A DNA stretch of 64,000 nucleotides, from contig OX597815.1 in NCBI GenBank assembly GCA_951406725.2, forward strand, positions 95,604,001-95,668,000, given 5' to 3'. The position numbers and the translations under genes were made by a program. This document shows positions 6,787-63,560 of this stretch, piece by piece. The notes beneath the pieces are model-generated. The model saw only the letters and a list, made by a program, of their open reading frames with translations. It had not been told where the DNA came from and ran no database searches. Position 1 is the stretch's first letter, and every line of letters begins with the position of its first letter. The stretch is from Octopus vulgaris. Lineage: Eukaryota.

Positions 6787-8541
6787 TACACACATACATA
6801 TAGATGGAATTGGTGTATACTGGACTGCTGGAACTGCAAGAAACAACGGTCAATTTTGATATAAATGACACACTATTATCATAAGATAAAAAGGAAATAT
6901 TTGGTTAGTGTTCTCTAAGCAATTCTTAATCAAATAAAAGTATTGGTCCCTCACTGTGAAATACACGTTTCTGCATCTCTCCACCACTTCAGGCTTTAGG
7001 TATCCCATTTCCTGATATCGGTGACCAACAAACATTGTGTTCACATATAGCCCTCTCCTGAGCCTACTCGACAGTCCTAGCCATGGATTTATTCTACATT
7101 CGCAACAGCAAATGGATGCTAAAACTATGGTATTTGAAATCAGTAAAGTGTAGGATGTACTACACCATCTTAAACAAATGTACATTAGCATAATTTATTT
7201 TCATACAAAAATTAGTAATTTTCTGAATAAGAATTTCTTCAAAGGATTTCCAATCTCTAATCTCGTCAATGTTATGTTTAGCTGCTTTTCTAACGGCTGG
7301 TATGTTCCGGATACCCAACAGATCTTGGATACACTGCTTGTATTTGACACGTTACCCACTTGCCTGGAGGTCGCAGAAAGAAAATGTTTTCACTATGGTT
7401 TTGCCTAATTAGGGATACAATGTTATAATACAGCCCTAAAATAAAGATATAGTAAAGAAATATGTATAACGACTCTACTGTAACTATCATAGTAAAGAAA
7501 GCAAAACGACACACATTCGTTCGTCTCGTTGAGGATTATAGATGTACTCAATCTCTCCGATTTAAATATCAAAAACAGCGTATTTTACATCATCGCAGGT
7601 CATTCCTATTTCACACAAGCCTGAAACGTTCACCGTCTGAGGGAGCAATCCTGCTTATGCACTAATCTGTTAGCGAGGCATATTATTTTTATTGGCTGTT
7701 GTGCGCCTATATTAGTGAGCGATATTTTCAGCCATTTGGAACAGATGGAAATCTGAGGTAATGGTGGCTGCTTTTCTCGACGTAAATCTTCAAAAGAGAA
7801 ACAAAGTAGTAAGGACCATAATTTATTACTAACATAATCATTTTGAAGTGACCTAATAAAAGTTCAGTTGTCGAGGATATATAAGCATAAATCATCGAAA
7901 TTCAATGTAGAATGTTATTAAATGCTTGCAAAGAATATTGGTTAATAGGACGTAACACTTCAAAGCTCTTCGGTAAATACCAAATATATATCTATTACAA
8001 TATTACAATGTTAAATGAATTTTGAATTCTTGTTATTGAATTCTGCAATAGATGTTCTTTGTAGTAAATATCTTCTGATATGATTAATATATTCCCTCTT
8101 CATTTACATTTATTTCATTTTAATACAATTTAATATTTCGATATATATATATTGAGCACAGAGTGTAGAATTCAATCTATAATATATTCATATACATTAG
8201 AAGTATACACATATCATAATACACCTACATATTGAAATGACGTTGATATTTTGTTACACGCTGAATAAATAATCTAATACGGAAAGGCACTTTAATATAC
8301 TTGCTAAAATCATTTACAGGAAGCACAGGGATACAGAAGCAATTCATCAACGAAAATATGAATTCAATCATGGCTTTAACATATTGGTGTTATGATATTA
8401 AACAATCCTTGTCGTAAATATGAGAACGCATTAAACGAATCAATAATGCTGCAAGCAAACATATATTTACACACACACACACTGACAGACAGCTCCCCAT
8501 ACGCATTTATATACGCTTATGTGTTTGCGTATAACGTGGTG

Positions 8542-8581
<40 letters not shown>

Positions 8582-8618
8582 TATATATATATATATGTAT
8601 GTATATATATATATATAT

Positions 8619-8665
<47 letters not shown>

Positions 8666-8819
8666 ACATATATATATGTGTGTGTGTATACACATGTATG
8701 CACGTGGTTTATAGCAAAATTATTGCAACATTAGACGTAACATTTTTTTAAAATGACATAGGTCGCTTAAATTGTATTTGTTTTTCGCCTAAAACGTCTA
8801 AATAAATATGATACTCATC

Positions 8820-9840
8820 AAAATTGTTATCGTAACCGTATACTTGTTCTGCTTCTGATTCCTGCTCTGGAATCCCCTTCGAAAACAGTCAGATATTCTT
8901 TATTTTATTCACTTTTTCACATTGAATGTTATCAAGTGTGACTCCGATATTAAAGACTGATCAGTCGACAGATCAGATATATGTCGAAGACTGTTACACC
9001 TGTGCTGTACAGTCGATGCGGTGTAATGAGAAGAGTAGAGCGCCAATTGCATGATATGTTGTGAAAGATGTATGGGTTTTCCCACTCCCTTGTTCTACCC
9101 TTCCTTTTACTGGCTTCTGAATACCTTTACAATATCTTAATCTACAGTTCATTATTCGAGGTACAAGAACTTTCTAGAAAAGCATTCCCTATTTCCCCCA
9201 AAAGCAACGATAAATGAAAAATCACACTCACTATGTGTTTCTATGCAGATTGCTGGATCTTGAATTTCTTATATCTTGAAGAATGAGGTGTGATACCATA
9301 CTGTGTTTTCTCTTTACGCTCAGAAAGTTGGCCCCACATTTCATAAACTTTCACCAGATGCGCAAAAATACATGTCATCATAGATCGGAAATGACTTAAG
9401 AAATTACCAGAGCATGCTCCCAAACGTTGTTCTTTCAAATCGGTTGTCCATCGTTGAGAAACTGGATTTACACTCGACTTTCGATAACAAATATCTTCCA
9501 CTATCTGCTCTAATGCTTTCATGCCAAATTAAAACAGTATAATAAGCTCCATATTTTGACTCCTCTGTCCGTGCGAATCAGTTCGTCCACTTACAGATGG
9601 TTCGTGTCCGTTGTTGATCTTTGGTACCTGTATGCAATTCTTTAAATTCTTCATCTATCTGCGTTGATCTCGTCAGAGGAGTCGTCACACAAACAAATTT
9701 TTATATTATTCGTATATCGGGTTGCTAACATCGCTTATCCTTCATCAGCCTAATTATGGCACGTTGCTTTTGCACAGAACCAACTATTTTGCAGTCAATG
9801 AAGAACAAGAAAAAATCGTTATAAAAGAGTTTTCTCTACC
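8820..9840 (-). mobile_element. mariner transposase pseudogene
   Basis: Minus strand reads VDELIRTDRGVKI, ALEQIVEDICYRKSSVNPVSQRWTTDLKEQRLGAC (LGYRK..RWVP..LT..K..R motif) and PHSSRYKKFKIQQSA*K (SP..KKFK.Q.SAGK motif). Confidence 0.7.
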
Positions 9841-19246: not shown

Positions 19247-19309
19247 TAATAACTGACGAGATGCCGAAGCAGATTTCTGCCCTGACATCCGAAACTCGGA
19301 GTTTTATTA
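19247..19309 (+). ncRNA. Type I hammerhead ribozyme at the 3' end of the upstream PLE
   Basis: TAATAA (stem I), CTGACGA, GATG...GCAGA-TT-TCTGC...CATC-C (stem II), GAAA, CTC-G-GAG-T (stem III), T (17), TTATTA (stem I'). Confidence 0.75.
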
Positions 19310-38688: not shown

Positions 38689-39933
38689 CTAATAATACAT
38701 ATCGTCCTCGAAATAGCTTGTGCCCGCGCCCTCCACCATCAACCACGCCTCCCTCAGAACGTAGTCAAGTTCCGAGTTCGCGTCGCCCGGGACCAAGTTA
38801 TAGTCTTCATTGAGCTCCTTTAGCCCTAGCGTCACGTCGAACGCCACGGCCTCCACAGCTACCTGCGGAGGCCATTCGGGGTCCTGTGTGAAGGCTAAAG
38901 GTGCTCCCTTGTAGTGCTCTTCCATCACTTTTTCAATTTCTCCTCCTCTATAGAAGAGGACCAATACATTCAGTTCTTTCGTTGGCGGCACAGTTTCCGC
39001 CAACGGTATTCCTTCTCTTGTCGGTGGCACAACCCCAACCGACGTAGTTCCGCAACATTCCGGTGCCACACTGACAGCCGGCAACGTCCCGTTTTTCTTC
39101 CTCTTTTTCTTTTTTTTTCCCTTTTCAACTGAGGGAGGGTGCGTCTCCTCCGTGGCTGGAAGATTCGCCCTCCTCTCCTCATCCCTATTATCCTTTGGTG
39201 AGCACCCATTGTTGCTCACCTTCCTCTTTCGGCCTCTGCTTGAGGAGTCCTCTGCTTTCTCGGCCGTTATCGTTCCCTCTTGTAGAGGGGTTTTACTTAA
39301 CTGTTCCGGGATCCTATTTTGTTCCCGAGGACAGTTCTTCTTTATGTGGCCGGACTCCAAGCACCGATGACACTTAGGGGGGCGACCCTCAAGCATCACC
39401 GGGTACCTGCACCCGGCCATTTTCAAAAAATCTGGAAAAACCAGATTGGCTGATTGGGTCCACAGGATCAAAACTGCTTTCGAGCCAACCCAAGCAGCCG
39501 CAGGAAGAACTTTTACATTGAGGAGCTTAGTTTCGCTGTCACCCAGACCCCGGCGGATAGTCTCCTCTATCCACTCGGGTTCTATGTCGGGTGGCAGTCC
39601 GCAGATCCAAGCTTTCATCAATTTCTTTTTTTTGTAAGTGGGCAGGAATAAGATTTCCTTACCCTCCAAGGGTTCGCTAGCAAATTTGCAAGCCTCTTCA
39701 GGGGTGTCAAACAGCAACCACACCGTTCCATATTTGACACCCCTGGAAATGAATTTAATTGTTGGCAAATACTCCTCCAACTCCTCCTCTATTGCCGTCT
39801 TTTCGAATAGGGCGATGGTGTCAAGTGCCTTGGAGTATGTTCTCAACACCACCGTCCTATCTTCACGGTCCTTCAACTACTTTTTGGGTGGTATGATTTC
39901 CCACTCCAAAACTTTGTTATTTTTCATTGCCAT
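38689..39933 (-). CDS. gag-like LINE ORF1 protein (putative RRM-like N-half, CCHC zinc knuckle, basic low-complexity tail); one in-frame TAG at codon 19
   Basis: ATG at 39933 gives MAMKNNKVLEWEIIPPKK*, in frame with the 395-aa ORF 38689-39876. Motifs are AWICGLPPDI, YPVMLEGRPPK-CHRCLESGHIKKNC (C-x2-C-x4-H-x4-C) and NLS-like RGRKRK / KGKKKKKRKK. Confidence 0.85.
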
Positions 39934-44985: not shown

Positions 44986-45043
<58 letters not shown>

Positions 45044-45050
45044 TCTTAAC

Positions 45051-45251
45051 TTAGTTTTTCCTTGGGGCTGGCCCGATTGGAGTAATCTCAAGGTTAATCA
45101 GCCGAAATTGCGAGGATGATCCGGTTCTTGACTGAGGATGGAGAGATTCGAATAACGCGTCCTTGATTTCTTTGTATCGTCTATCTGGATGAGTTGGTTT
45201 TTCCCTTTTTGTATCACCTAGCTGTCCGGGTGTTTTGCGTTCTTGTCCCAT
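45051..45251 (+). repeat. Short unclassified interspersed repeat (second copy)
   Basis: Homologous to 41540-41707 and flanked by (TA)n. Confidence 0.8.
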
Positions 45252-45271
45252 TATATATATATATATATATA

Positions 45272-46526
45272 CCAGACGATGATCGCTGCCGGTGTTGAAT
45301 GGCGTCACGACGGAGACGTCATGTAATATACGTCGCTTATCAACCAGGATGTAGTCGATCTCGCTTTGATGCTTTAGTTCTTCCGGAAGCCTGCTTGTTC
45401 CCTCGGTTGTTGTTCGTCGAGACGACGAGATAACCTGTTCAGAATAATCTTTGCGTTGCGTTTATAGACTATGAGAATGCCTTCGATAGCGTCGAAACCA
45501 ACGCAGTGCTGAACTCGCTGCAGAGGCAAGGAGTCGAAGCGCAATATGTGCAGCTGCTCAGATAGGCAAATTCCGGATGCACCACCGACATAGCTCTACT
45601 GTCATCACCCATACGAGTGCCGGTCGAGAAGGGAGTGAAGCAAGGAGATACAATCTCCCCAAAACTTTTCACTTCATGTCTCGAACAGATCATCAGAGGC
45701 ATCGACTGGCAAGGTGGTGTCAACATCAATGGCGAACTCCTCACCCACCTCCGTTTCGCTGACAACATCGTACTCATCGCTGAAAACAGGGATCAGCTTC
45801 AGATCATGCTGACGGAGCTCGACATCAAAAGCTCTGCAGTAAGTCTCAAGATGAACCGCATGAAAACAAAGTTCATGCGGTCAGACAACGTACCAACAGG
45901 TCGAATGGTGATCGGCAGTGATGAAATAGAGGAAGTAAGGGAATATGTCTACCTGTGACAGGAAGTAAATATGTGCCGAGATATCGAAAAGGAGATCTCA
46001 ATGAGAGTAAGGGCCGGATGGAAGGCGTTCAATGGCATAAGGGATGTGCTTAAGGGAAGGTTGGACAGGACCACCCGCGCCAACCTCATTAACAGTGCAG
46101 TTCTGCTTGCAATGTTATATGGTAGTGAAACATGGGCTACCACAAAGAGAGAAGAGCAAAGACTGGTAACGGCTCAAAGAACCATGGAAAGGTTAATGCA
46201 GGGTATCTCGTTGAGAGAGCACATAAATAGCGAGATCATCAGAAAGAAGTCCGTCGTGAGAGATGTCATCGCAGAGTATACACGCAGCAAGTATAGGTGG
46301 GCTGGACACGTCGCCCGGCTCACCGATAATCGCTGGACGCACGCAGTTGTCGAGTGGTACCCGCGCGAGCGGATAAGACCACCCGGAAGACCTCCACGAC
46401 GGTGGACTTACGATTTCAGGTGACGATTGGGATCACGTGGATGAGAAAGGCGCGATCCAGAGAGGAATGGACAGCGTGCTGTGATCAGCGGTGTCAAATG
46501 GACGCATGACGGACTGGTCGGTCAAG

Positions 46527-46530
<4 letters not shown>
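45272..46530 (+). mobile_element. RTE-clade LINE, 5'-truncated with inverted 5' segments, in a (TA)n tract
   Basis: Plus strand: AFIDYENAFDSVE, KGVKQGDTISPKLF, HLRFADNIVL, EYVYL, MLYGSETW, RWAGHVARLTDNRWT, RPPGRPPRRW. Minus-strand RT and APE pieces lie at 45272-45451. Confidence 0.93.
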
Positions 46531-46601
<71 letters not shown>

Positions 46602-46899
46602 GTATATATAGCGGTGTACGTACACTTTGTTCTCTTATATGTAAGTACACATTTTACAAAATCTTGTACAATTCTATTTCTATCAACCCTTTCACGCTTA
46701 TTCGTTCATTTCACTCTTCGTTCTTTCGTTCCCCTTCTCTCACATGTTTTGCCTTCTCTTCTTACTTTCCCTCCACTTTTCACTTCACGCTACAAACGAC
46801 GGATGCAGTGCTATTTGCAACTATCGAGCAACAAAATATTTTAGGTGTGGCCCAAAAAATGGTGTTGCAGCTAGCAAGGGTGCAAACACGACTAAGCCA

Positions 46900-48405
46900 A
46901 ACACACCCACCAACAAAACCGCTACATATAACAGACCTAGGATGGCTACCAGTCCCGCAAAGCCGACAATCACAAAGCCGACAATATTCTCTTAAATATT
47001 AGAGGACTCTTACAAAGCTACAGCAATCGAAAGATTCCATATCTGAGGGATCTTTCTGTATACAATCGAGATATGCATTGCACTTACAAAGACACATTTC
47101 TCTGCAGATGTAAATAACGCCGAGATGCACATACCAAAGTACGCAGTGTTCGGCGCAGGCAGAAGTGGGATAAGTGCCGGTGGAGTTGCATTGTGCATCA
47201 GCGAAGATGTTCCACCTCCAAACTTGTTGTTACACTCAAACTCGATATGTGACACTCATAGTGCATTTAATGCAACTTGATGTGATGATATACACACACT
47301 ATCACACACCTGATGCCTCAAATCACAATGGTAAACTTGAAGGCAGTCTTGCAATGATAAAAGAAGTGCTAATATAACTGGATCAAAGTATTAATATACA
47401 TCTGATGGGTGACTTTAACTTACCAACTTCAAATGGCCCGATGATCACATAACCTCACAAATGACAAAGAGCGTTCAAAGCAGAAACTCCACTTGACTTC
47501 ACAAAAATGATATTCATGGAGCAAACAATACTCTCCACAACCAAGAATGATAACATTTGACCTTGTTTCACCAAGAATATGGGTCTTATCCCCAACTTGA
47601 AAATAACACCAACAATCCTCTCAGATAAATGATGGATTTAACACAGGCGCACCCAAATCCTGTCTAATCTAAGCTTCTACAAGGCTCACTGGAAGTCAAT
47701 TGTAAAATGGAATATTCAGCAAAATTGGCCTAAAAATTCATCTATTCAAGACATTGATATGGAACTTGAAAAATTCATATCAATAAAGCGAGCCATATGC
47801 ATTAGATTTATTCCAGAGAATTGAGCAACTGCATAAAAAACATCATTTCTTCAGTCAGGAGAGTCCTTATGAGAGAGAGAAAATAAAGATATCAATCGCT
47901 TAAATAAACAACATATTGACAATGAGAAACTCATCCTAGAAGAGAGACTTTTAGTGATAGGAAATAAACTAAGACTCTCACATGTAAAGCAATGTGTAGA
48001 AAGAAAAAACCAGGGCTGTGGAAAATAAGTGCCAAAGTCTTCTAGAAGTTCGCAAAAGAATCTGACTCAATGCACTACAGGATAGCTGAAGTACTAGAAC
48101 AAGCAATTCCAGGGTGTCTTCTCCATCGGGAAGATTGCAAGTGGGTGAGCCTAAAGGGTTCTTCAACGCTCCAGACCCTAGATGAGAAAAAAGCAAGTAT
48201 CGATTATATCGACATAAAATAGGAAGCTGTAATATCGGCAACTGATGATATGAGCTCAAACTCAGCAACGGGCAAGGATGGGTTTCCGTCTGTTTTCCAA
48301 AAAACATGCAAGATATCTCCCGCAAAACCACTGCAGATATTTTTAAGAGTTTCCTTTCGACTTTGCCAACGTTTTTGGCAATGTTGATCATGGGATGACA
48401 TATCA
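46900..48405 (+). mobile_element. CR1-like LINE ORF2 5' part (APE endonuclease to start of RT), decayed
   Basis: IALTKTHFSADVNNAEMHIPKYAVFGAGRSGISAGGVALCI, LMGDFNLP and MSSNSATGKDGFPSVFQKTCKISPAKPLQIF. Confidence 0.8.
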
Positions 48406-48414
48406 CAAACTACG

Positions 48415-48945
48415 CGAACTTGGTATTACTGGAAAGATATTGAAACTGTAAGTCACGACTGGTATGGCTAAAGCATTGATCGCTTCGATCCTGTTTCTCG
48501 CATTCAGCTGTCTTGAGTATTACTCTTACTCTGCAATAACATTCTCTCCTGATCCTTTCCTTCATCACTGGATGCTTGATTCCGTCCCCTTCAATTACCC
48601 CAAGGTGTTTGAAGCTCTCCGCTGGGTCTAACTCTTTTATGGCATTCTGCTGGTCAAGGTTAACGTTACATGTTTCTGTCATTTTTCCTTTGATAAAGGT
48701 AGCTTTTGCACATTTATCGAGACCAAATTGCATTATGATGTCATCACTGAATTGTTTAACAATGCCATGGTAGACGGTCGTAAGAACTTCTTTATTATCT
48801 TCCCTAGACCATTTTTAATTCTTTTTCTTTTGGTTATTTGATGACGGGCATGAATGGCCATCTGTTGGAATATTCCGGTTGTGGGGTACTTCCAGCTCCT
48901 GTATGTTGGTAACATTTGAATAAGTAGCTGATCTTCCAATTCGAA
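48415..48945 (-). mobile_element. R4/Dong-type LINE fragment, N-terminus joined to late RT
   Basis: An N-terminal KWSREDNKEVL-like motif (about 48815-48780) abuts KQFSDDIIMQFGLDKCAKATFIKGK...FKHLGV...MKERIRRECYCRVR. Confidence 0.8.
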
Positions 48946-49476
48946 TCTAGTTCAACATTCGAGTATGTGGTCTTTTGTAATACGGTCGATGACCAATCCG
49001 GTTTGTAATTTGTTTTGTAAACAGTGAAGCATGACGAGTTTCGACATTGACATCAGGAGACGGATCTGTCTTTTTAGGGTTAATTTTTTGCGACCACACC
49101 GTCTTCGTGTTCTCTGCATATAAACATTGTTCATATCGTAGCTTCTTAAGGCTAGCAGATCTGCATTCGTCAGTAATTTTTGTGTTGATAAATTTATCTC
49201 CGAACATAGTTTTTTTGTGGTGTTTTTAAACTTATGAATTGTTCACTCTGGTAGTGTGGTCTGTGTTAGTTCGACTATACCTCCGTCTCTAATACTTATA
49301 TCTATATAAGAATGAAAATAAAAAAAGGAAAATGTTTTGATTTTGTTTTTGCTTCCTTTGTGATGCGTGCTTTCATATGCGTGAGTGTGTGTCCTGTAAA
49401 TTGCACGTATTGGTGTAAACTTTGAGATCTATGTGTAGTCCTATGGGTATCAAAATATGTATATGATTGTGTAGAC

Positions 49477-49512
<36 letters not shown>

Positions 49513-50245
49513 GAACAGCTTCTAACGCTGGAGATGTACTGCGGTGTCTGCTGTTCACAACCAGTAAACTAAGGTAACGCCTTTTATTTTTCGAGCACCT
49601 TCCGGAGTATTCGGGCGTTTCCAAGCAGTTCTGTTTTCTGCCAGTGCTCCACCCTTATTGCAGCCCACGTATTTCTCGAGTTTTTGCTCACTCTTCCCAG
49701 GGCTCCGACAATTATTGGTGCTACTGCTACCTTTTCCATCGATCACAACTGCTTAATCTCCCAAGCTTTCTTTCTTATCGCATATCTTGTTGTCAGCTGG
49801 GTATGCTACATCTATGATACAGCATCGTTTGTTTCCTTTCTCAATTAAGACTATGTCTGGGTTCCTATTCTCTACCTCATGGTCGCACTGAATCATGAAA
49901 TCCTATAGGATCTTTGCATTTCTATTTTCGACGATGTCTTCAAGTGTTTGCTCATACCAATTTTTTTGCTCTGCCAAGTCCATACTTGTTGCAAAGTGTC
50001 TAATGGACAAGCCAGGCTATATTGTCGTAGCGTCTCTTATATTCCCTCTGGGCTAGTGGTGTACATTGGCTCGTAATATGCCATGCATTTCACTGTTTTG
50101 TCCACAGATTCTGCACTTCTCACTTTCTGCTGTGTTGTCAATTCTGTATGTTATGTAGTGTGTTGTTAGTGCTTGACTTTGGGCAGCACAGATTAGAGTA
50201 TATATTTCCGGTTTAAATCAATTTTAGTCATCTACGGTCATCTTT
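49477..50245 (-). mobile_element. R4/Dong-type LINE 3' fragment with (AAT)n tail
   Basis: Minus strand: ICAAQSQALTT, KCRICGQ, EYKRRYDNIA, AKIL*DFMIQCDHEVENRNPDIVLIEK...IIDVAYPADN. Ends in (AAT)n at 49477-49511. Confidence 0.88.
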
Positions 50246-50253
50246 TTTTCTCT

Positions 50254-50324
50254 GGGCATATGGCGTAGTGATTAAGAGCGCGGGCTACTGACCCCAAGAT
50301 ACTGAGTTCGATTTCAGGCAGTGA

Positions 50325-50358
<34 letters not shown>
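50254..50358 (+). mobile_element. tRNA-derived head plus (AAT)n; probable 5' half of a SINE split by Dong
   Basis: GGGCATATGGCGTAGTGATTAAGAGCGCGGGCTACTGACCCCAAGATACTGAGTTCGATTTCAGGCAGTGACC has A and B boxes and a tRNA-like length, then runs into (AAT)n. Confidence 0.8.
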
Positions 50359-50360
<2 letters not shown>

Positions 50361-52963
50361 TAATATCAATAAAAGAAACGCTGAAACAAAAAGTCCAAGC
50401 AAAAGCCCAAAGAATACGAAGATTTGAGAAGAGAAACAAGTTTTACAAGCAAAATAAGCTGTTCACATCCAATGCCAAAAAATTCTACAGAGAAATAGGG
50501 AAGGAGAAAGTAACCGTTAAAGACCCCCCTCCCATGGAAGAAGTTCAAAACTTTTGGAAAAGTATTTGGAGTGACAAGAAGACGTACAACATAAATGCAG
50601 ACTGGATTATACAAACTGAAGGATCCTACCAAAATTTACAACAACAAGCATGGGAAGACATCACAATAACAGACCTAAGAAAGGCACTCACGAAGGCCCA
50701 TAATTGGAAATCCCCCGGTAAAGATAGGGTGCCGAATTTCTGGCTCGCATCGCTCCCATGCGCACACGGTAAGCTAGTTCAGCTGCTCAATGGAATTATG
50801 AGAGACCCAAAGAAAACACCTGAATGGTTAGCAAGTGACATTACTTACCTACTCCAAAAGAATAACGAAACCAACCTTCCAAAAAACTATCGGCCTATAA
50901 CCTGTCTATCCACCACGTATAAAATCCTAACATCTATCCTGGCGGAGAAAACATATGCATTCATGGAGAAGAACGATATTTTCCCCATTGAACAAAAAGG
51001 GTACCGCCGAGGCTCTTACGGATGCAAAGATCAACTGCTAATCAATCGTATGATCCTTGAGAACTGTCACAACAGGCGCAGAAATCTCAGCCCCGCATGG
51101 ATTGACTATAAAAAGGCCTTCGACAGTATACCGCATCCATGGATCTTGAGATCGCTGGACATCTTCAAAATTTCCCCTGTGATTTCAAACTTCCTGAAGC
51201 ACAATATGTCGTTGTGGAATACGAATCTCCAATTATACCACTCTAATGGAGTACTTGCCTCAGAAAATATAAACATCAACTGTGGAATTTTTCAAGGTGA
51301 CTCACTTTCACCTTTAATATTCTGCATAGCCCTAATACCCCTTACAAGTAAATTAAACAGAACAGGGTATGGGTATAAAATTGCCAATAAAAAAATAAGA
51401 CATCTATTTTATATGGATGACTTAAAACTTTATGGTAAAGACAATAATGAACTTGAAGGCCTATTGTGCACTGTGAAAGCATTCAGCGATGACATCGGGA
51501 TGGAGTTTGGACTTGAGAAGTGTGCCAAGGCCACTTTCCAGAAAGGGAAAGTGAAGACCACAAATTCAGTCGTGTTAGATGTTGACACAGTCATAAGAGA
51601 GCTTGAGCAAGAACAAACATACAAATATTTAGGGATAAATGAAGGCTCTGGTATTCAGCATGCAAGCATGAAAGAGAAGATCAGGAAGGAATGTTATAGG
51701 AGAGTTCGTGCAGTCCTGAAATCTGAACTAAATGCACGTAACAAGGTGTTAGCTATAAATTCCTTAGCAGTTCCAGTTGTTACTTATAGCTACAATGTGT
51801 TGAACTGGAATATGAGTGAAGTAAAGAATATAGATAGGAAAATACGCAAGCTGCTGAGTTGTAATAGGATGCACCACCCAAAGGCAGACGTAGATCGCCT
51901 TTACCTTCCCAGAGCCCAAGGAGGTCGGGGCCTGATCCAATTTGAACTAGCTTACAAAACAACCACAATTGGACTGGCCAAATATCTCGAAATATCGAAT
52001 GACTGGATGCTAAAACTCGTGGAAAATCACGAGAGACGAAAGAAGCTTCATTCTATTATAAAGGAAAGCAAAAAATTTGCTATTGATCTCGTGCAGGATA
52101 CCCAAACAGAACAACCCGAGGGAAGTACGGCAATTATTGTTGCAAAGAAGGTAAAAATAATGGCAATGAAAAAAGCGCACGAGCAATTGGCTGATAGGTG
52201 GGAGGAGAAACCTCTGCACGGCAAATATGTGACCCGCAGCAAACAAGCTGATGTTGACCAGAAGCAAACCCATCAGTGGCTACGGAGCTCAGGGCTAAAA
52301 GCAGAGAGCGAAGGTTTCATCCTGGCTGCTCAAGATCAAAGCCTATTAACCCGGAACTACCAGGCCAATGTGATGAAAAATGGAGCAGACCCAAAATGCC
52401 GATTCTGCAACGACATGATTGAAACAGTGGACCACCTAATCTCTGGATGTAAAGTCTTAGCTCCAGTGGAGTATAAATTAAGACATGACAGAGTTGGCCA
52501 ATATCTCCACTGGCTAATAAGTCGGCATTACAATATCAAAACTGCCGACAAGTGGTATAATCACCACCCTGAGGCTGTAACTGAAGGAGAACATGTAACC
52601 ATTCTGTGGGACTTTCCAGTACATACAGACCGAACCATCAAGGCCAATAAACCAAATATTGTTGTGAAAGACCAAAACAATAAAGTTTGCTTATTGATCG
52701 ACATGAGCATCCACTGTGATCATAATATCTCAGCGAAAGAGTTTGACAAGCTCAGAAAATATAAAGACCTACTCATTGAAATTGAGAAAATGTGGCATCT
52801 CAAGGTGGTTACAATACCAGTGATCGTAGGAGCACTAGGAATGATCAAGAAGGGAACCGAAAATTATATGAGAGTGATCCCTGGCTTACCATCCCTGCAA
52901 GAAGTGCAAAAGATTGTCTTAACTGGTACATCACACGTATTGAGAAGAGCATTGTCGATGTGA
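50357..52963 (+). CDS. R4/Dong-clade retrotransposon ORF (RT, CCHC finger, restriction-like endonuclease), 5'-truncated
   Basis: KSPGKD, NYRPITCL, WIDYKKAFDS, GIFQGDSLSP, LFYMDDLK, YKYLG, CRFC-x8-H-x4-C, RHD and WDFPVHTDRTIKANKPNIVV...LLID. No APE domain. The nominal ATG comes from the microsatellite. Confidence 0.95.
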
Positions 52964-53146
52964 GAACTGTTGCTGCTCATGTATTTTAATTTAACTTAAA
53001 AAAAAAAAAAAAATGAACGAACTATTGAGTTTGGTTTAATGGCCTACCAATGTATACTATGAGTTTCTTTGCCCTAGGAGTCGGGAAGACACTCGGCAAG
53101 AAATGGAAGCAAATTTGAAAGAAGAAAAAAAAAATAATAATAATAA
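50359..53146 (+). mobile_element. R4/Dong-type LINE inserted in (AAT)n
   Basis: (AAT)n on both sides. The 3'UTR ends GGAAGACACTCGGCAAGAAATGGAAGCAAATTTGAAAGAAG-An-(TAA)n. Confidence 0.92.
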
Positions 53147-53198
53147 CAACTTCGAAAAATAACTTAGGAATGAGAACCCAGTTTCGAAATTTATCTTA

Positions 53199-53244
53199 GA
53201 CACCTGATGAATGCTAGAGGGTATATCAGCCGGAACGTTGTGTT
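53199..53244 (+). ncRNA. Degenerate type I hammerhead (A13G) in the tail following the Dong insertion
   Basis: GACAC (stem I), CTGATGA, A, TGCTAG-AGGGTATA-TCAGCC (stem II, partly mutated), GGAA, CG-T (palindromic stem III), T, GTGTT (stem I'). Confidence 0.6.
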
Positions 53245-53623
53245 AACAACAAACAAGATGAGGCCAAATATCCATCAAATGTAAATAATGTACATAATTT
53301 CTCATCTCTGAAATATAAAACTGTATTAAAAAATGCTTATATTAATAACTACAATTCATCTTTAGTCGTTGATAACGAATCACGTGGCAGTCTCCAATTT
53401 ACATCCTGACCGGCCAGTAGCTAGGTTGTTGGCTATAAATATCATCTCACCCCAATACACTTCCACTTCATTAATGGTTCTGTTTTCTTCCATTCAAGGC
53501 TGTCAAATAGACACGTTCCCACTGCGCAAAGGGAATGTTCTTCCATTGTTTTGGTATATAAGTTATCTGATGAATACGTTTTATTTTTACTATGATGTAT
53601 GTATGTATGTATGTATGTATATG

Positions 53624-53656
<33 letters not shown>

Positions 53657-55560
53657 TCCAAATTAATTAATTTCACCCTTCATTATTACGGATAACCATA
53701 TTTTATCTCAGTGGATGACCATAGCATCTTGTTTTGGCTACACGCGGGTGGGAAGGGGCTGGTGACACAATCCTTTCATTCACACGTTGAGTTTGGTGAT
53801 ACTAGTTGCGGATTCTAGCTCGCTCTGATACTGAGTTGAGTTGGTGCCTTCTAGTATCTCAAAATTCAATATATAATCACTTATGATTATAGTATTCTAC
53901 GCTGAAGAGAAAAGAAGTTTGGGTAACGTAGAATTATTTAACATTTAATTCTCATGCTTTCCTAAAAACTTGATTTCGAAACGTGCGTCCGTAGATAACT
54001 TAAAATTGTATGATAGATTGCCGTCAATTCATTCTCTCTTACCTGTTTGTGTCTGCCTTCCAATTGCTGTGTTTTTTACTGAGATCTCCCTTTTTAGTAG
54101 AAGAAATAGCTATAACTCTTTACTGCTATTTCTAAATTCGGTATGTGGTAAGGCAATTCGTTGCTAAACCCTTTATTGCTTAGTATTACTTATATATATA
54201 TATATATTTATGCATATACATATTATAATAATGGAGGCAGGTTTATGGGGTTTTTTCTGGGTTTCTCGCTCATAAGGGATTTAGCCTTACGGCGTATCTT
54301 CAAACTCCAAACACTGCAGCCCAATACCTCTTCAAAATATGGAGAGAGAAATGGTTCTCTATAAAATTAAACACTAGAAGATTATCTCCCTTTGGTCATC
54401 AAGCTTCGGCTGCGCCGCCACCTTGCGGTCACCAAAGGACTGCGATGGTAACACGAAGGTAAGCGATTGTCACCCTTTCGTCCTTCGCTGTTGGCTTCCG
54501 ACTGTAGTGTCGTCTTTCAGATTCCAAAATACAAAGAGGAATCTTCGAAGATGTAAGAATGGCCCGAATATCTCCATCGTTGGTTTCAGGATGCTTCCTA
54601 GCACGTTTGGACGTTTTAGGATTCTCGTGCCTTCGGCAATCCATTGATGTGGACTATTAAAAGCAATATTTTCAGGAAGCACACGGACGCATACTAATAG
54701 CTTTATTTTATAAAAGTAAAAGGAATAAATATGGTAAGATGTATATGTTTTCAACGTAAAGGTATCATTTGACGATAAACACAACTGGTATGAATAATAG
54801 ACTTCAGAACAAGAAAAACCGATTGTTTTGCGCATAACCAAAGGAATATATATCAAACGAGTTTTAACTTGTTTAGTTCTCCTTGATTAATTTTCTATCA
54901 AATGCATGTTTTGGAAATTTATATAATAACATTAATAATATACAATGTCTATAAATTCAGTGTCATTAAACTATGATTATGCTGAATTGGTTTCTGTTTC
55001 TTTTATGCAAATTTGCTGTGAGTTTAATAATAGAAGTTGAATTACTTTAAATATCTCAGGAGATTCGCTCTTTATTAAAATGTTTCATCGATTTTGTAAA
55101 AATATGTAATTAGAAATATATTGTCTTCGCGAGACTTAGAGAATTAGATGAATCGTAAATGGGATTCTTATACAGTTTAATACACAATTACTGGCATATA
55201 AAACAAAATGACATATTTGGCCGAAAGCCTAATTTTGTGTATTTCATCACGCGACACTTATCACTGAACGTGCTTGTCATGAGATTTGTTTATAATTGCT
55301 TGTGTGTGATTCTAGAAAGCTAATGTATGTGTGAATATATATATACGCAAACATATGTGTGTGTGTGTAAGCGCGTGTGTCAGTTTGTGTACATGTGTAA
55401 ATGTGTTATCAGAGCATTTCAAAGCATGCGATTTCGCAGTTATATGAGAATTACTTTTGGGATGGAATAATAGGAATATGATACCATAGAGCAAAATAAA
55501 GCTGCGATTATTGGAACTAGAGAGATAACATATATAAGTTTCTACTGTTTTAGAATTATC

Positions 55561-55603
<43 letters not shown>

Positions 55604-55700
55604 TTTTAGCATGATGAAAATATAAATTTGTGCTCACCTAGATATTGTATAATACCCATTTGCAATATTAATCCGAGCATGCTCTTGTGTATATTTGTAT

Positions 55701-55796
<96 letters not shown>

Positions 55797-57775
55797 TATG
55801 TATATGAATCTTCAACTTTCTTCCGGAAATAACTCTCTAAAAATACTTGGAGATTCTCCCTTGTAGTACAGAAAATCCTACAAATAAGTTTGATGCTTTA
55901 GCTGGGAAAAGTATATATGCCTGTCCATGATGACTCAAGCGACAAAGCGAAAAGGGAAATTTCATCAATTATAGTCCTCGATAAAAACAACGGAGCACTA
56001 ATTGTCAACCATATAAGATTAATTTCGTTGACATTCGCATCCTCATTAATAATATGCCCTCTCTACTTTTGCTGTGCCATTGTGCCATAGGGTGTATCTG
56101 CTTATCTGTCTGCGAGTTTGTTTGCGAAACTGTTTACAGATTCTGTATTTATACTAATAAGAATGTGAGTTGGAATACGGACGTGGGAAGGAGAGAAAGA
56201 GAGGGATAGGGAGTGTGTGTGTGCGCATACATGTGTGTTTGTGTGTGTGTGTGTGTGTGTGTCTGTCTGTGTGCGTGTGTGTGTGTGTGGGAGTGCGTGT
56301 GCGTGCACCTGTTGATTAGGATGTTGATTCTGTGAGTAAATGTGTTACAGAAAACATATTTGGGTGCGTGAATGCACTGGTGTAGATTCCGTAAAAGGTC
56401 TCTGTATTTGTTCATTTATTTTATGCCTAGTATGTTTTCCTTTGTGAAATGCTGTGTGTATAATGTGAAATGCTGTGTGTATAATGGCGTCTGTGCGTGT
56501 GTCTGCGTGCATGAATACTCAAGGGCAGTCATTTATTAATTTATAGGATGGTTTTCATATTAATATACTACGACATTATTCATCGTTCTGAACGCAAACA
56601 GAACAAAGATATATATTTACCATACTACTTTATGTTTACAAACGCCCCAGTGTATATTTATTAACCTAACACTTATACACCAATTGTATATTACTAAACT
56701 GCAAGTGTGTATTTTCCTCTGTTTGGGGCGGTAGTGACTGTCTAATAAGTCCACGTTATCTAGATTACATATTAAAAAATACTTTGCACAATAGTTATTA
56801 TCATTATGAACATTGTACTCTGATGAAAATGAGTATTTGTTCAAAGTGTTACATAGTGTTTTAAGTGTTCAAAGTGTTTTAATCATAAATAAAAGAATTC
56901 GGTGAATGTAATTTAGATATAGTTATGTCTGCATCGCGTTTACACGATAGTATATCAGAAAATGCAATTAGTATGAGAAGGCATTTATAATTGATGTTGT
57001 TAAATATTTGCTAAGCAGCTGAATTGAGATTACGGTTGGATAAATATGTAGTGGTGATAGTGTATTCATTTTCAACGTTTCGTTAGCGTAATTTTGTCTC
57101 GTTGCATATTTCAGTGCAACAATTCTCTGACAATTATTGAAAATGAGATGAATTTGGCTTCCGCAATTTTAATTAAAAGTTTATATTTGTAATTTAATGA
57201 CCTCCGTCTCTTTCTAAATTAAACATCCTAGTGATGTTTAATGTAGAGATACTTTGTTTAATTACGATACACGTATGAGTAAAAAGCATTGGACATATAA
57301 TTGGAATGCTTAATTGCAGTATTTGCTATATTCGTTTTAGTAAAACTGGATTTTATCAACAATTTTCAATGGGGGAACATAATATCGCTCTTACAAATTG
57401 TCTTCACACATTTTCAACTACAAACAGAAAGCAAAAATCAATAAGTGGCAAATATATTGATATTACAAGCTCGCTATTTATAATGCTGTTTGTAATGCTA
57501 TAGGTGTATTTTCAGTCAAGACTTCGCTGAAGAGTTTTTAGATAGTATTACAGAAAACTGGTTGTATACACTACATAATGTTTTATATTTGAGAGGGAAT
57601 TTGACAGGAGTGAAGTTGCTGCACATATCGTCTCCACAAAATGGCGTGGCTGGGGTCACAATAATGTATTTAGTAGCACATTTGCGATCTTTCCTAAGTC
57701 CATCAGATGCTACGTAATCACGATAGAAATATGAACGTGATTTTTTTTACCGTTTTTACAACCTTGTTTTCATGA

Positions 57776-57818
<43 letters not shown>

Positions 57819-57918
57819 CATCATATAGGCAAAAAAGTAATATTTCAAACGCGGTATACCCGTAAAACACCAGAAAGTTTGGGTACTTTACCCTTATATG
57901 ACAGAAAAAGTTGTCACC

Positions 57919-57990
57919 AGACAGCCCCGAGTCTCGAACCTGCACCTTCCTGATATCGGCTTAGGACTTTAGCAATTAAGTTAAACTGCC
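57919..57990 (-). mobile_element. Decayed tRNA-like head (SINE or tRNA pseudogene)
   Basis: Minus strand GCAGTTTAACTTAATTGCTAAAAG...GCAGGTTCGAGACTCGGGGCTGTC, with a B box and a decayed A box. Confidence 0.5.
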
Positions 57991-58089
57991 CGCTGAGAAC
58001 ATTTTCCACCAAATCTACACGCTAAATACATAGCTTAATTTGAAATGCAACAACGTATGTAAAGAAACTTTTCATATAAATAAAATGTT

Positions 58090-58625
58090 ACTCATATCGT
58101 AAATGAATGAAGTGTGCTGGCACAGAAAGAATACAAGAAAAGACACGACAACCTGGGGAGAGTAATCTACTGGGCGTTACGTAGACAGCTAGGATTTGAT
58201 CATACTCATAAATGGTATCAACATGAACCTAGAAAGGTGCAACAAATTATGAAATATACGTTGTTGTGGGACTTTCATATTCAGACGGACAGAATAAAAG
58301 CAGCTAGAAGACCTCATTTAGTACTACTAGATAAAGAGAATAGAAAGTACTAAATAATTGACTTTACACTCTCAAATGATGAGAAAGTCAATATGAGAGT
58401 TGTAGAGAAAGTAGCAAAGCACCGAGATCTAGGCATCGATTTGAGTTAGAGAGATTATGTAAAGTGCAGGTAGAATGCATCCCTGTAGTTATTAGGTACA
58501 ATCCTTAAAGATCTTAATAGACAAATAGAGAAAATAGGCATAAAATCTAGTTTAGTACAGCTCCAGAAAGTAGTGTTATTAGGGACGGCTAAAATACTTA
58601 GGATGTATCTTGGAATTTTGGGTTA
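58090..58625 (+). mobile_element. R4/Dong-type LINE 3' (RLE) fragment
   Basis: LAQKEYKKRHDNLGRVIYW...KWYQHEP...LLWDFHIQTDRIKAARRPHLVLLDK. Confidence 0.88.
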
Positions 58626-59001
58626 CGTTTTGTTGCCTGATGTATGGAATTATTCTTTTCCAACAGTTTTTGTGCGTATATGAAAGGATCATGATGTTAT
58701 AAACTGCAGGAATACAGGAGTTGCAACAAAACCTATGATAAAAAAGAATCAAGAAGAAGAGTGAACATTTAAACCAAAGACAGAAGGACTACTGAGAAGA
58801 CCAAAACGAAAGCTGAATGGTATGTTTTGGGAGCTATGCAGGAGGTAAGACCTACGATGTATCGACTATTGGTATGAACATCACACCTTTTCTTCACAGA
58901 AAGGAAAATGCAACCTAACAGCGAGTTACCTTTCTCTTACCGAGGGAGACTAGGATATGGATCTTCACTAACATAGCAATGTCTGCATATCATAACATTG
59001 T

Positions 59002-59004
<3 letters not shown>

Positions 59005-59070
<66 letters not shown>
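59005..59070. repeat. (GA)n microsatellite
   Basis: Direct reading. One of many simple tracts; long (TA)n/(CA)n tracts also occur near 8540-8700, 9850-10025, 14232-14390, 17420-17525, 20740-20870 and 55705-55800. Confidence 0.95.
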
Positions 59071-59071
<1 letters not shown>

Positions 59072-59199
59072 GGAATCCAAGGTTATTATCAAAACGTGCA
59101 GTTTGATCCACAGTGTAATCAAAGGGCTTCAACATTGAATGTTATAATAATCATGATAGCTCTAATTGGGCCATCTCAAAGGACACACAAATCTCGTAT

Positions 59200-60130
59200 A
59201 AGAAGATGGAATTTCTCATACCGTATATCATTGAAAGTACACTACTGAAAATAATACTTGAATCAGTGCATGTAGTTAGGAAATGGTTTAGTTGCTAAGT
59301 TTAGTTGATGCATGGCATATTTAACACGGGAGATGAAAGTGAAATCTAGAGAGACGGGTTTAAGATTACCATGGATAGATTATAAGAAAACCTATGGCAT
59401 AACGTATTAAAAATGCAAAGAATAAAAAAATGAAATAAATTCTTTAATACTATCGCTAAAACTCTTCAGCAAAGATATAGGTATAGAATTTAGATTAAAT
59501 AACTTTATAATATCAGTCATAAACACGGGTTGTGCAATCAGTAGTAAAAACGTTCAGTTTTTGCAATTATAAATGCAAAATAATGAAAACATGCCCTAAC
59601 TCCAAATGCAGAATGTGCAACCAGCAGAATGAGACAGTTGACCACATCATGATATATATATATATATATATATAGATACGACCGAGTAAGTAGTTATATC
59701 CATTGGACTTTAAAGCTGATAACATATTATATAAATATGTGCCGAACAAAGTTCTAGACAACCACCAGATCACAATCCTCAGGGATATGCCGGTTCAAAC
59801 CAACAAAGAAATAAAAACTAACCGCCTTCACACAATAATCAAAGATTGGGATAAAAACCCTGCTAAATGATAGATATTGGAGTCCCTTCTGATCAAAATA
59901 TTGTCCAAAAAGAAATGGCAAAATGTCAAAGTACAAAGACCTCGAAACTGATATGTCCAAGACGTGCAGCATAAAGGGGAAAACAACACCAATAATAATG
60001 GGAACATTGGGCATGATAAATGGACATATGAGCAAAAGCGTAGGAGCCACACCTGGATCTTCAACACTACACACTGTCCAAAAAATAGCCCTCCTACGAA
60101 CAACCCACATCATATGCAAGACACATGAAT
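59200..60130 (+). mobile_element. R4/Dong-type LINE decayed fragments (RT remnants, CCHC, RLE)
   Basis: KCRMCNQQNETVDHI, ITILRDMPVQTNKEIK and SKYKDLETDMSK...PIIMGTLGMI...VQKIALLRTTHII. Confidence 0.8.
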
Positions 60131-61479: not shown

Positions 61480-62104
61480 GAATCTGTGAATAAAATGGTG
61501 AAACCGTATGGCATATTACCAGGCAATGAACACCACTAACTCAGCACGAATATAAGAGACATTATGACAACATAGCAAAGATTGTCCATTGGACACTTTG
61601 CAACAAGTATGGACTTGAAGATCAAAGGAGTGGTACGAACATAAACCCGAAGTTATCATCGAACATTTCAATGCAAAGCACCTATGGGATTTTATGAAAC
61701 AGTGCGGCCAAGAGATAGAGAATATGAAGCCAGATATAGGCTTAATTGAGAAAGAAAGCAAACGATGCTGGATCATAGATGTAGCAAGCTCAGCTGATAA
61801 CAACGTATGCGATAAGAAAGTAAGAAAAGTTGATAGATATGACAGATTAGCTCGGGACGATAAGTAGTTGTGGTCGATGAACATGTTGGTAGTAGTATCA
61901 ATAATTGTCGGACCCCTGGGAACATTGGGTAAAAAATCTTGAGAAGTACATGGAACAAATGCGGCTGCAATAAGGGCGGAACCTTTGCAGAAAAAAACAC
62001 TGCATGGAACTGTTCTTATATTTCAGATGGTGTTACCATTGTTCAGTGGTAGAGAACAGCTGACACCATACACCTTCAGCGCTAGAAGCTGTACAAAGAC
62101 AATA

Positions 62105-62200: not shown

Positions 62201-63560
62201 ATAACGAAAAACAAAAAATGGGAATGAAATTCTGAAATACATCAGAAAAAAAAGACATCACAGAAACAAATAATTTGATCAATGTAGCAAGAATTGCTGC
62301 AGCAGAAAATGGGTATTGATGTCAAGAAAAAGAAATATAATGGAACTGAGAAACGAGAAGATCTATCGTGGAAAAGAAAAATACAGGTGGTTTTAGATAA
62401 GCTCTCGAATGACATTTCTGTGTTAGCACTAAAAATACTGAACAAGAAGTATGATATTGTAAGAAAGGCCCTGAAAGTGGTAATGGAGGAACTGAAATAG
62501 CACCTTGTTTCAAAGAAAGCACCGATGGTAAGATACGATCAAAGAATGAAGGGATAGCAGCAGAATAGGTTATTCAGGGTAGATCAGAAGAGATTCTACA
62601 AGGAAAGAAATGAAGAATGTACAAATGAAAAGTTGATACCAGACAACATTGAGAATCAAAGGTTCTGAGTGGTTGCAAGAATTGGAACAAACAATAGTCC
62701 AAAACTGGCAGAACTAGTCATTTCCGTTAGGGAAGTGAAGGAAGTAAAAAAAAATGGGGCAACTGGAAGACCTCGGGACCAGATGGAATTCAAGGTTATT
62801 GGATCAAAAGATTTGGTGAATGCCCTGCACAAATAGCTGCAACACCTTGTTAAGTGCCGACCAACTAACGCCAGAGTGTTTGACAATGGGTAGAACAGTG
62901 TTGTGCTTGAAAACATCGAAAAAGGCAATACGGTAGACAATTACGAGCCGATCTCTTGCTTGTCACTTATTTGCATATTATTGACTGGGATAGTAAAAAC
63001 AAATGGAACCCTGCCACATAAGCAGAATGGTTGCAAGCATAAGCGCAGAGGTACCAAGGATCAACTCCTGGTAGACAAAACCGAAATAATAATAATAATA
63101 ATAATAATAATATGGAATTTATGAAACTATTGGGTATTGCATCGAATGTTGAGCGATTGCTTGAAAAATGTATGGCGAAGTGGAGGACGGAACTGACAGC
63201 ATATGGAAGAAGTTTAAGAACGATAAGAATCAGGAGAGGCAGCTTCCAAGGGGACTGCCTTTTCCCGCTGATCTTTGTACTGTGTATGATACCACTAACA
63301 CGAGGAAAACAAAGGTTGGATATATATTCAATAGCCTCCAACAAAAAGTCAAGCACTTGTTATTCATGGATGGCCCCAAATTTTATGGTAGAGATGAATC
63401 CCATATCAGTTCCCTCGTTGATACGCTGCATACACGGCAGTGAAGAAGGAACGGACATGGGCATGGTATGTAAAAAATGCCACAGAACCGCTATTATTGT
63501 GTTGGATGGAAGGTTGCAAATATAAAGCACCGTACAAGCAGTTGAGAATGAATGAAACTG
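62200..63560 (+). mobile_element. R4/Dong-type LINE decayed N-terminal/RT fragment
   Basis: ITETNNLI, NYEPISCL, QNGCKHKRRGTKDQLLVDK, IRRGSFQGDCLFPLIFVLCMIPL and KHLLFMDG. Confidence 0.85.

Follow-up and report, generated by a model that had tools for sequence, protein, structure and literature searches.

How does a repeat that joins a transfer RNA (tRNA)-derived head to a hammerhead ribozyme spread through a genome, and which machinery moves it? The question arises from a 64,000-nucleotide stretch of Octopus vulgaris DNA (assembly GCA_951406725.2, contig OX597815.1, positions 95,604,001 to 95,668,000; hereafter the window), in which such a repeat is split by a long interspersed nuclear element (LINE) of the R4/Dong type. 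We found that the repeat is the pseudo-long terminal repeat (pseudo-LTR) of a Penelope/Poseidon-type element that carries an open reading frame (ORF). To the reading that short copies bud from this tRNA-headed module through RNA polymerase III (Pol III) transcription and two-primer insertion we assign a probability of roughly 0.6. A preliminary description of the locus had recognised a head, AAT runs on both sides of a LINE, and a hammerhead tail. All of these parts were located again:

50254-50329, forward strand: tRNA-derived head, with the A box at 50261-50271 and the B box at 50304-50315; the copy starts at the tRNA start.
50329-50365, forward strand: left portion of the (AAT)n linker, which is the Dong target.
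50366-53133, forward strand: 5'-truncated R4/Dong-type LINE with reverse transcriptase (RT), CCHC and restriction-like endonuclease; its exact ends are blurred by the AAT runs.
50330-52963, forward strand: 877-codon open reading frame of the LINE.
53134-53147, forward strand: right portion of the (AAT)n linker.
53146-53327, forward strand: pseudo-LTR body and tail, from the ATG at 53170 equivalent to the first 52 codons of the Penelope ORF.
53199-53244, forward strand: minimal type I hammerhead motif, with the core at 53204-53210 and a predicted cut after 53239; damaged at 53212, 53216 and 53233.
53291-53325, forward strand: 34-nt optional tail between the short (~53291) and the long (~53325) family 3' ends; the window copy has the long end.

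The same description had proposed that these parts are one unit split by Dong, and that head and tail should co-occur elsewhere. Searching the 2.8 Gb genome, we found 761 exact uninterrupted head-linker-tail junctions and 2,377 exact intact hammerheads, while the reversed-pattern controls gave 0. The uninterrupted copies thus support a single unit. Head followed by tail on the same strand within 900 bp was present at 20 of the 29 loci picked by their tail and at 22 of the 29 picked by their head. Since a similar exact pattern caught only 7 of 73 sampled tails, the family points to tens of thousands of copies; a search with the tail peptide returned 38,111 rough first-look candidates. The repeat is short, dispersed and high-copy, and the majority of copies begin at the head. 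Among copies, the tail frame behaves neutrally (nonsynonymous/synonymous ratio 0.86). Family sequence was present in sequencing runs of five organisms, and an expression search by sequence gave no RNA run with it among those listed. Three loci (L002, L022 and L227) have a second, unrelated repeat directly upstream of the tail, either within the (AAT)n linker or next to it.

The head was compared with genomic tRNAs. Its family majority scored 63 against tRNA-Arg(TCG), whereas shuffled sequences reached 26.6 ± 4.5 (maximum 45). This score supports the predicted tRNA-derived origin of the head, with tRNA-Arg as the best match in a partial panel of 30 genomic tRNA loci with few isotypes. The A and B boxes of the family majority are intact and at tRNA spacing, the acceptor and anticodon stems are decayed, and a run of four T is absent from the majority head and tail. 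Ohshima and Okada reportedly described the octopus short interspersed nuclear elements (SINEs) OK, OR1 and OR2 in 1994, of which OR1 and OR2 are said to derive from tRNA-Arg. The head may be one of these two.

The hammerhead of the family is of the minimal type I, as had been proposed: it has an extra base between positions 9 and 10.1, a G10.1-C11.1 pair and a palindromic stem III. Such defining features are listed in PMC4209133 (here and below, literature statements refer to the available sections of the cited papers). The family majority restores the GGCTGG/TCAGCC and GAAA that had been predicted for a consensus. The window copy matches the family majority at 71 of 76 bases in the head and 167 of 182 in the tail, and its hammerhead carries three changes, which include the GAAA box and the first base of stem II. 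It folds no better than shuffled sequences (z 0.13, versus -1.90 for an intact copy). ARAGORN found no tRNA over the whole window, and Rfam found neither a tRNA nor a hammerhead at 45000-60000 (E<=5). A target duplication is absent. The window copy is a decayed, lone long-ended copy that was later split by Dong and is probably inert. A pattern search for sister hammerhead families yielded just mutated copies (2 and 28 matches).

The preliminary description also suggested looking for an autonomous Penelope-like element with the same tail. The 52-codon tail peptide, used in protein searches, failed to bring up such a parent; it was found by reading upstream of heads. There, 17 of 123 matches (some of them duplicate loci) ran into a common spacer, beyond which the longer of them reached a frame resembling an endonuclease. 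A search with this frame gave 5,708 rough first-look candidates, and in 30 fetched loci the head followed about 29 nt after the endonuclease stop in 26, with both head and tail in 25. Walking 5' of the endonuclease frame uncovered RT motifs and near full-length copies. At the other end, tail and ORF form one continuous reading frame in L296, L317 and L323, and the tail adjoins the ORF body in L328, L329, L333 and L338. Direct pseudo-LTRs flank the ORF and overlap its start in L296 and L317 as well as in L328 and L338, and L317 has a tRNA head at its 3' and 5' ends. The parent has an ORF of about 800 codons whose N-terminus is the tail.

The majority ORF comprises about 806 codons, RT motifs preceding endonuclease motifs, and has a single frame wobble in a poorly aligned part; the identity of 74 long matches to it averages 90.7%. 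Among 20 further ORF loci, 15 had a head, and the 5 without were cut short or ended before the stop codon. We take the endonuclease domain to be GIY-YIG from its motifs. Seven database relatives carry PF26215 and five of the seven also RVT_1. By eye, there is no zinc-finger linker of the Neptune type, and a Neptune protein shares 32% identity over 113 aa. The element is Penelope-like by every feature tested and a putative member of the Penelope/Poseidon clade. Neptune-type elements, which account for most Pfam GIY-YIG matches, were rejected as the parent, having neither the same head nor the same tail. No Penelope ORF lay between two copies 5 kb apart.

How the copies were inserted can be read from their ends. 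Family 3' ends form two groups at tail positions ~146 and ~180, 34 nt apart, which are 122 and 156 nt past the ATG of the Penelope ORF; matches ending at position 153 are a variant with a 9-bp duplication. Copies end at these two Penelope-type sites, and a LINE-type 3' end (poly(A) or simple repeat) is absent. Of the 75 loci picked by their hammerhead, 47 had an inverted, head-to-head partner upstream. In a set of 59 pairs whose loci were not picked for a long tail, 53 combined a long with a short end, 2 were short and short, none was long and long, and 4 were unclassifiable (p 4e-14 on 55). The tail-picked set comprised 19 long-short, 2 short-short and 2 long-long pairs; for insertions bearing the ORF, 17 of 20 pairs were long-short and the other 3 unclassifiable.

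Duplications of at least 9 bp, mostly 11-14, bordered 46 of 72 pairs (0-4 with shuffled partners), and the two arms of a pair had 36 non-CpG variants in common versus 12.6 ± 4.1 expected (reached in 0 of 2,000 shuffles). Long/short pairs with 11-14 bp duplications occur among short and ORF-bearing copies alike. The duplications and common variants indicate that each pair is a single event. Inverted arms, short duplications and a tail "optionally" on one arm are known from Penelope elements (PMC8557442, PMC3846280). Thus, inverted pairs, 11-14 bp duplications, two Penelope-type 3' ends and the parent ORF bear out the earlier suggestion that the family is moved by Penelope rather than LINE machinery. 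At the 5' side we mapped 107 arms. Of the 67 that reach the tRNA start, 57 stop within -10 to +5 of it, which is what Pol III transcripts would leave; the density of 5' ends was 0.057 per base there, compared to 0.009 inside the head and 0.009 upstream. From the A and B boxes together with these 5' ends, Pol III transcription of the short copies seems likely.

We propose the following course of events. In a master element, the 3' untranslated region would have received a tRNA-Arg-derived piece with an AAT tail. Pol III would then transcribe from the head through the hammerhead and the protein-binding region, giving RNAs of about 300 nt. The RT-endonuclease, probably as a dimer, would nick both target strands about 12 nt apart; each nick would prime one complementary DNA, one per internal start site, and the two would be joined head to head. 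Since the majority of copies span the predicted cut site, uncut RNA is the likely template. Dong later inserted in the linker of the window copy. A comparable process is described for an Anolis element (PMC11167929), whose protein, a predicted dimer, cleaves and extends the two strands and works from an uncut RNA template. Its two internal RT starts bound the tail, one of them 111-118 nt into the ORF, versus 122 and 156 nt past the ATG for the octopus ends. Self-priming on an antisense template, as proposed in PMC3846280, may also be compatible with the octopus pair data.

A bolder version of this proposal holds that a captured tRNA gene, serving as terminal-repeat promoter, gave rise to a genuine Pol III SINE family, tens of thousands of copies strong, whose insertions record the two-primer mechanism, with both start sites on the same RNA. 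We hold it tentatively, at somewhat less than even odds. In its extreme form, for which the case is weak, the whole element would be a Pol III unit. This form rests on the absence of a run of four T from the majority of the 2.45-kb element, a weak signal with P 0.03 by codon shuffle of a frame-broken majority and 0.10 under a Markov model.

A number of results weigh against budding via Pol III and two-primer insertion. No intact ORF occurred in the 150 best matches of either search (longest 362 and 569 aa), hence the family looks dead, and the Pfam GIY-YIG model does not score the endonuclease domain. Variants common to both arms could also result from gene conversion, and a duplication was present in only 4 of 21 lone copies. 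Other causes of the 5' pile-up are possible: a weak hairpin at the head boundary (z -1.12), and inverted junctions, which can imitate the -7 end. Short and ORF-linked copies are equally diverged (90.3 versus 90.4% identity to the majority), and diagnostic sites do not clearly divide them into subfamilies; four sites at p<0.003 are explained by locus selection, a CpG site or gaps. Given equal age and the missing split, independent SINE masters would be hypothetical. Finally, RNA sequencing (RNA-seq) of organism B, which may be another species than that of the genome, contained 6,800-9,245 family reads per 11.5-12.9 million in standard libraries. These reads were even on both strands, 85-86% of them ran on into other sequence, and they showed no start or end peak. 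We regard these data as speaking neither for nor against Pol III use.

Several of these points would fit ordinary Penelope end fragments in which the tRNA piece is a passenger. Short copies would then be 5'-truncated elements or lone pseudo-LTRs, made from RNA polymerase II or read-through RNA, and the stops at the head would come from a hairpin or from a pseudo-LTR start site there. PMC3846280 describes palindromes at the 5' ends of pseudo-LTRs as well as solo pseudo-LTRs, copies in inverted orientation, tails and duplications of 8-10 bp; the equal age of short and ORF-linked copies, the lack of a subfamily split and the exclusive read-through in RNA-seq agree with this too. We nevertheless consider this explanation less likely, given the pile-up at the tRNA start, the A and B boxes kept at tRNA spacing though other stems have decayed, and an excess of tail-bearing over endonuclease-bearing candidates of about 7 to 1 (38,111 versus 5,708, both rough first-look counts). 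It is quite improbable that a short SINE came first and that a Penelope master later took its head by template switch or insertion, with an exchange of ends. Short copies do dominate and recur in five organisms, and the order of events is not fixed by these data, but the tail is the N-terminus of the same ORF and must therefore derive from a Penelope element. Nor was a head-less relative of the ORF found, the five incomplete loci mentioned above being the only ones of the 20 further loci that lack a head.

The preliminary description favoured a SINE or retrozyme mobilised by Penelope machinery. The SINE-like, Penelope-moved part of this view holds; the unit is not free-standing, being the pseudo-LTR of its parent, and the retrozyme part fits poorly, for want of head-to-tail arrays. 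A Pol III retrozyme, with tandem units that self-cleave, circularise and are reverse transcribed as circles, would account for the tRNA-like promoter and for the type I hammerhead whose stem III is palindromic, features also of Schistosoma Sm-alpha (PMC6765202, PMC2770079), and a few partial tandems exist (L171, L188). Against this stand the inverted partners in most hammerhead-picked loci and the fetched loci, which contained monomers and inverted pairs instead of any long head-to-tail array. Arm 5' ends are spread, and no pile-up at the cut site was seen among 97 junctions inspected by eye or in a second 5'-end mapping. We give this alternative almost no weight.

The organism B reads contain further marks. 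Loose read ends occurred at L168 1591-1592 and 1625, which are the two family 3' ends. Among the joints listed for these reads, from libraries of a kind that loses small circles, none was a back-joint at the cut site. A 3-base deletion at the hammerhead cut site was present in 8-10% of RNA reads (L168:1536) and also in several genomic copies; it is either slippage or a cut-dead subfamily. In L168:1350-1640, each RNA run had 22-26 A>G and 19-21 T>C places, versus 4 and 3 in a contig run, and at four T>C places of L168 13-24% of reads differed, compared to 1-2% of genomic copies. These mismatches, called without matched DNA, are likely A-to-I editing. Inverted arms would fold into long hairpins.

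The Dong insert itself is a typical member of its group. Its frame (50330-52963) has an RT domain (Pfam RVT_1, E 3e-28) and its protein resembles R2 proteins (E 2e-27); its putative assignment to R4 is by similarity. Over 2787 bp it shares 98.4% identity with a longer copy in L243, while the window head and tail diverge 7-8% from the family majority, which makes the insert the younger element. Head, R4-type ORF and tail followed each other in this order at 7 of 20 loci, involving several LINE families with 27-97% amino-acid identity. These loci were hand-picked because head or tail was missing nearby, and 7 of 20 is therefore no frequency. The (AAT)n linker is plainly a recurrent Dong target, in line with the earlier notion that the internal microsatellite seeds such sites. 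Dong elements insert in TAA microsatellites (PMC3812793), and Dong-R4 was recently active in Octopus vulgaris (PMC13282606). The insert resembles Dong (R4 clade) LINEs in RT, restriction-like endonuclease and (TAA)n site; the only notable difference is that a Penelope end module supplied the target.

How does the family compare with known systems? Endonuclease-bearing (EN+) Penelope/Poseidon elements (Anolis Poseidon, PMC11167929; Adineta Pen2a, PMC3846280; PMC8557442) have in common with it a single ORF with RT and C-terminal endonuclease, a pseudo-LTR that overlaps the ORF start, a minimal hammerhead, an optional 30-40 nt tail on one arm, an inverted 5'-truncated partner and short duplications. 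The octopus family differs in that a tRNA head with A and B boxes and (AAT)n lies inside the pseudo-LTR, most copies start there, and the long/short rule is near absolute (53/55 pairs, and 17/17 classifiable pairs with the ORF). The nearest precedent for tRNA plus hammerhead is Sm-alpha: Schistosoma Sm-alpha and Sj-alpha (PMC2770079, PMC6765202) combine a tRNA-related Pol III-type promoter with a type I hammerhead in tens of thousands of copies. They are, however, multimers cut into units, with no parent named in the available sections, whereas the octopus family has a minimal hammerhead, occurs as monomers or inverted pairs and has the parent ORF attached. Animal non-LTR retrozymes (PMC7229834; bioRxiv 10.64898/2026.07.22.740005) are also non-coding, hammerhead-bearing and derived from Penelope pseudo-LTRs. 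They are defined by head-to-tail arrays and circular RNA, no tRNA head being described in those sections, and the octopus family lacks such arrays. In the literature searched we did not find a tRNA-headed Penelope end; Repbase, Dfam, the Zenodo library of PMC13282606 or OR1/OR2 may already contain the family. Finally, tRNA-derived SINEs that have their 3' end in common with a LINE also join a tRNA head to the recognition region of a partner. In the octopus family the partner is a Penelope element, the common part is ORF start plus ribozyme, and the parent has the head too.

Other elements were seen in passing. The loci L091 (1245-3590), L092 and L093 belong to a Neptune-type family that is young and has numerous intact ORFs of 781 aa, preceded by a frame of 327-378 codons in another register; its 3' end (L085, by eye) seemingly has a U-A core hammerhead variant. 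Two gene models contain part of the N-terminal peptide, P0001 (an uncharacterised O. sinensis protein) and P0003 (an O. bimaculoides dystrobrevin beta isoform), by either exonisation or annotation error. Predicted proteins P0005, P0007-P0009 and P0011 are built from tandem units of ~42 residues that resemble the tail peptide by about 50%, and are likely translated tandem, retrozyme-like relatives of the end module in other genomes. Within the window, a second minimal hammerhead-like motif of another family (19247-19309, forward strand) combines a stem I rich in AT with a palindromic stem III; another core match lies at ~25978. The window also contains, as we presume, further LINE fragments of R4-like type close to AAT arrays, together with an ORF1-like zinc-knuckle frame of 395 aa and a fragment resembling RTE (48439-48765, 61516-62022 and 38689-39876 on the reverse strand, 63043-63525 and 45959-46423 on the forward strand).

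SINEs are described as parasites of LINEs, and the evidence tying hammerhead repeats to Penelope elements has so far consisted of co-occurrence and of similar termini. In the octopus, the head, the ribozyme and the parent ORF are physically connected. This suggests a way in which the end of a Penelope element can give off a tRNA-headed repeat. Long/short pairing that is near absolute, along with the 11-14 bp duplications, provides a genome-scale prediction about those later steps of Penelope insertion that are still unsolved. The family is also a source of target sites for Dong and of inverted hairpins, which in octopus transcripts are likely subject to A-to-I editing. If our reading is true, it would be a SINE with a Penelope partner whose parent still has the tRNA head.
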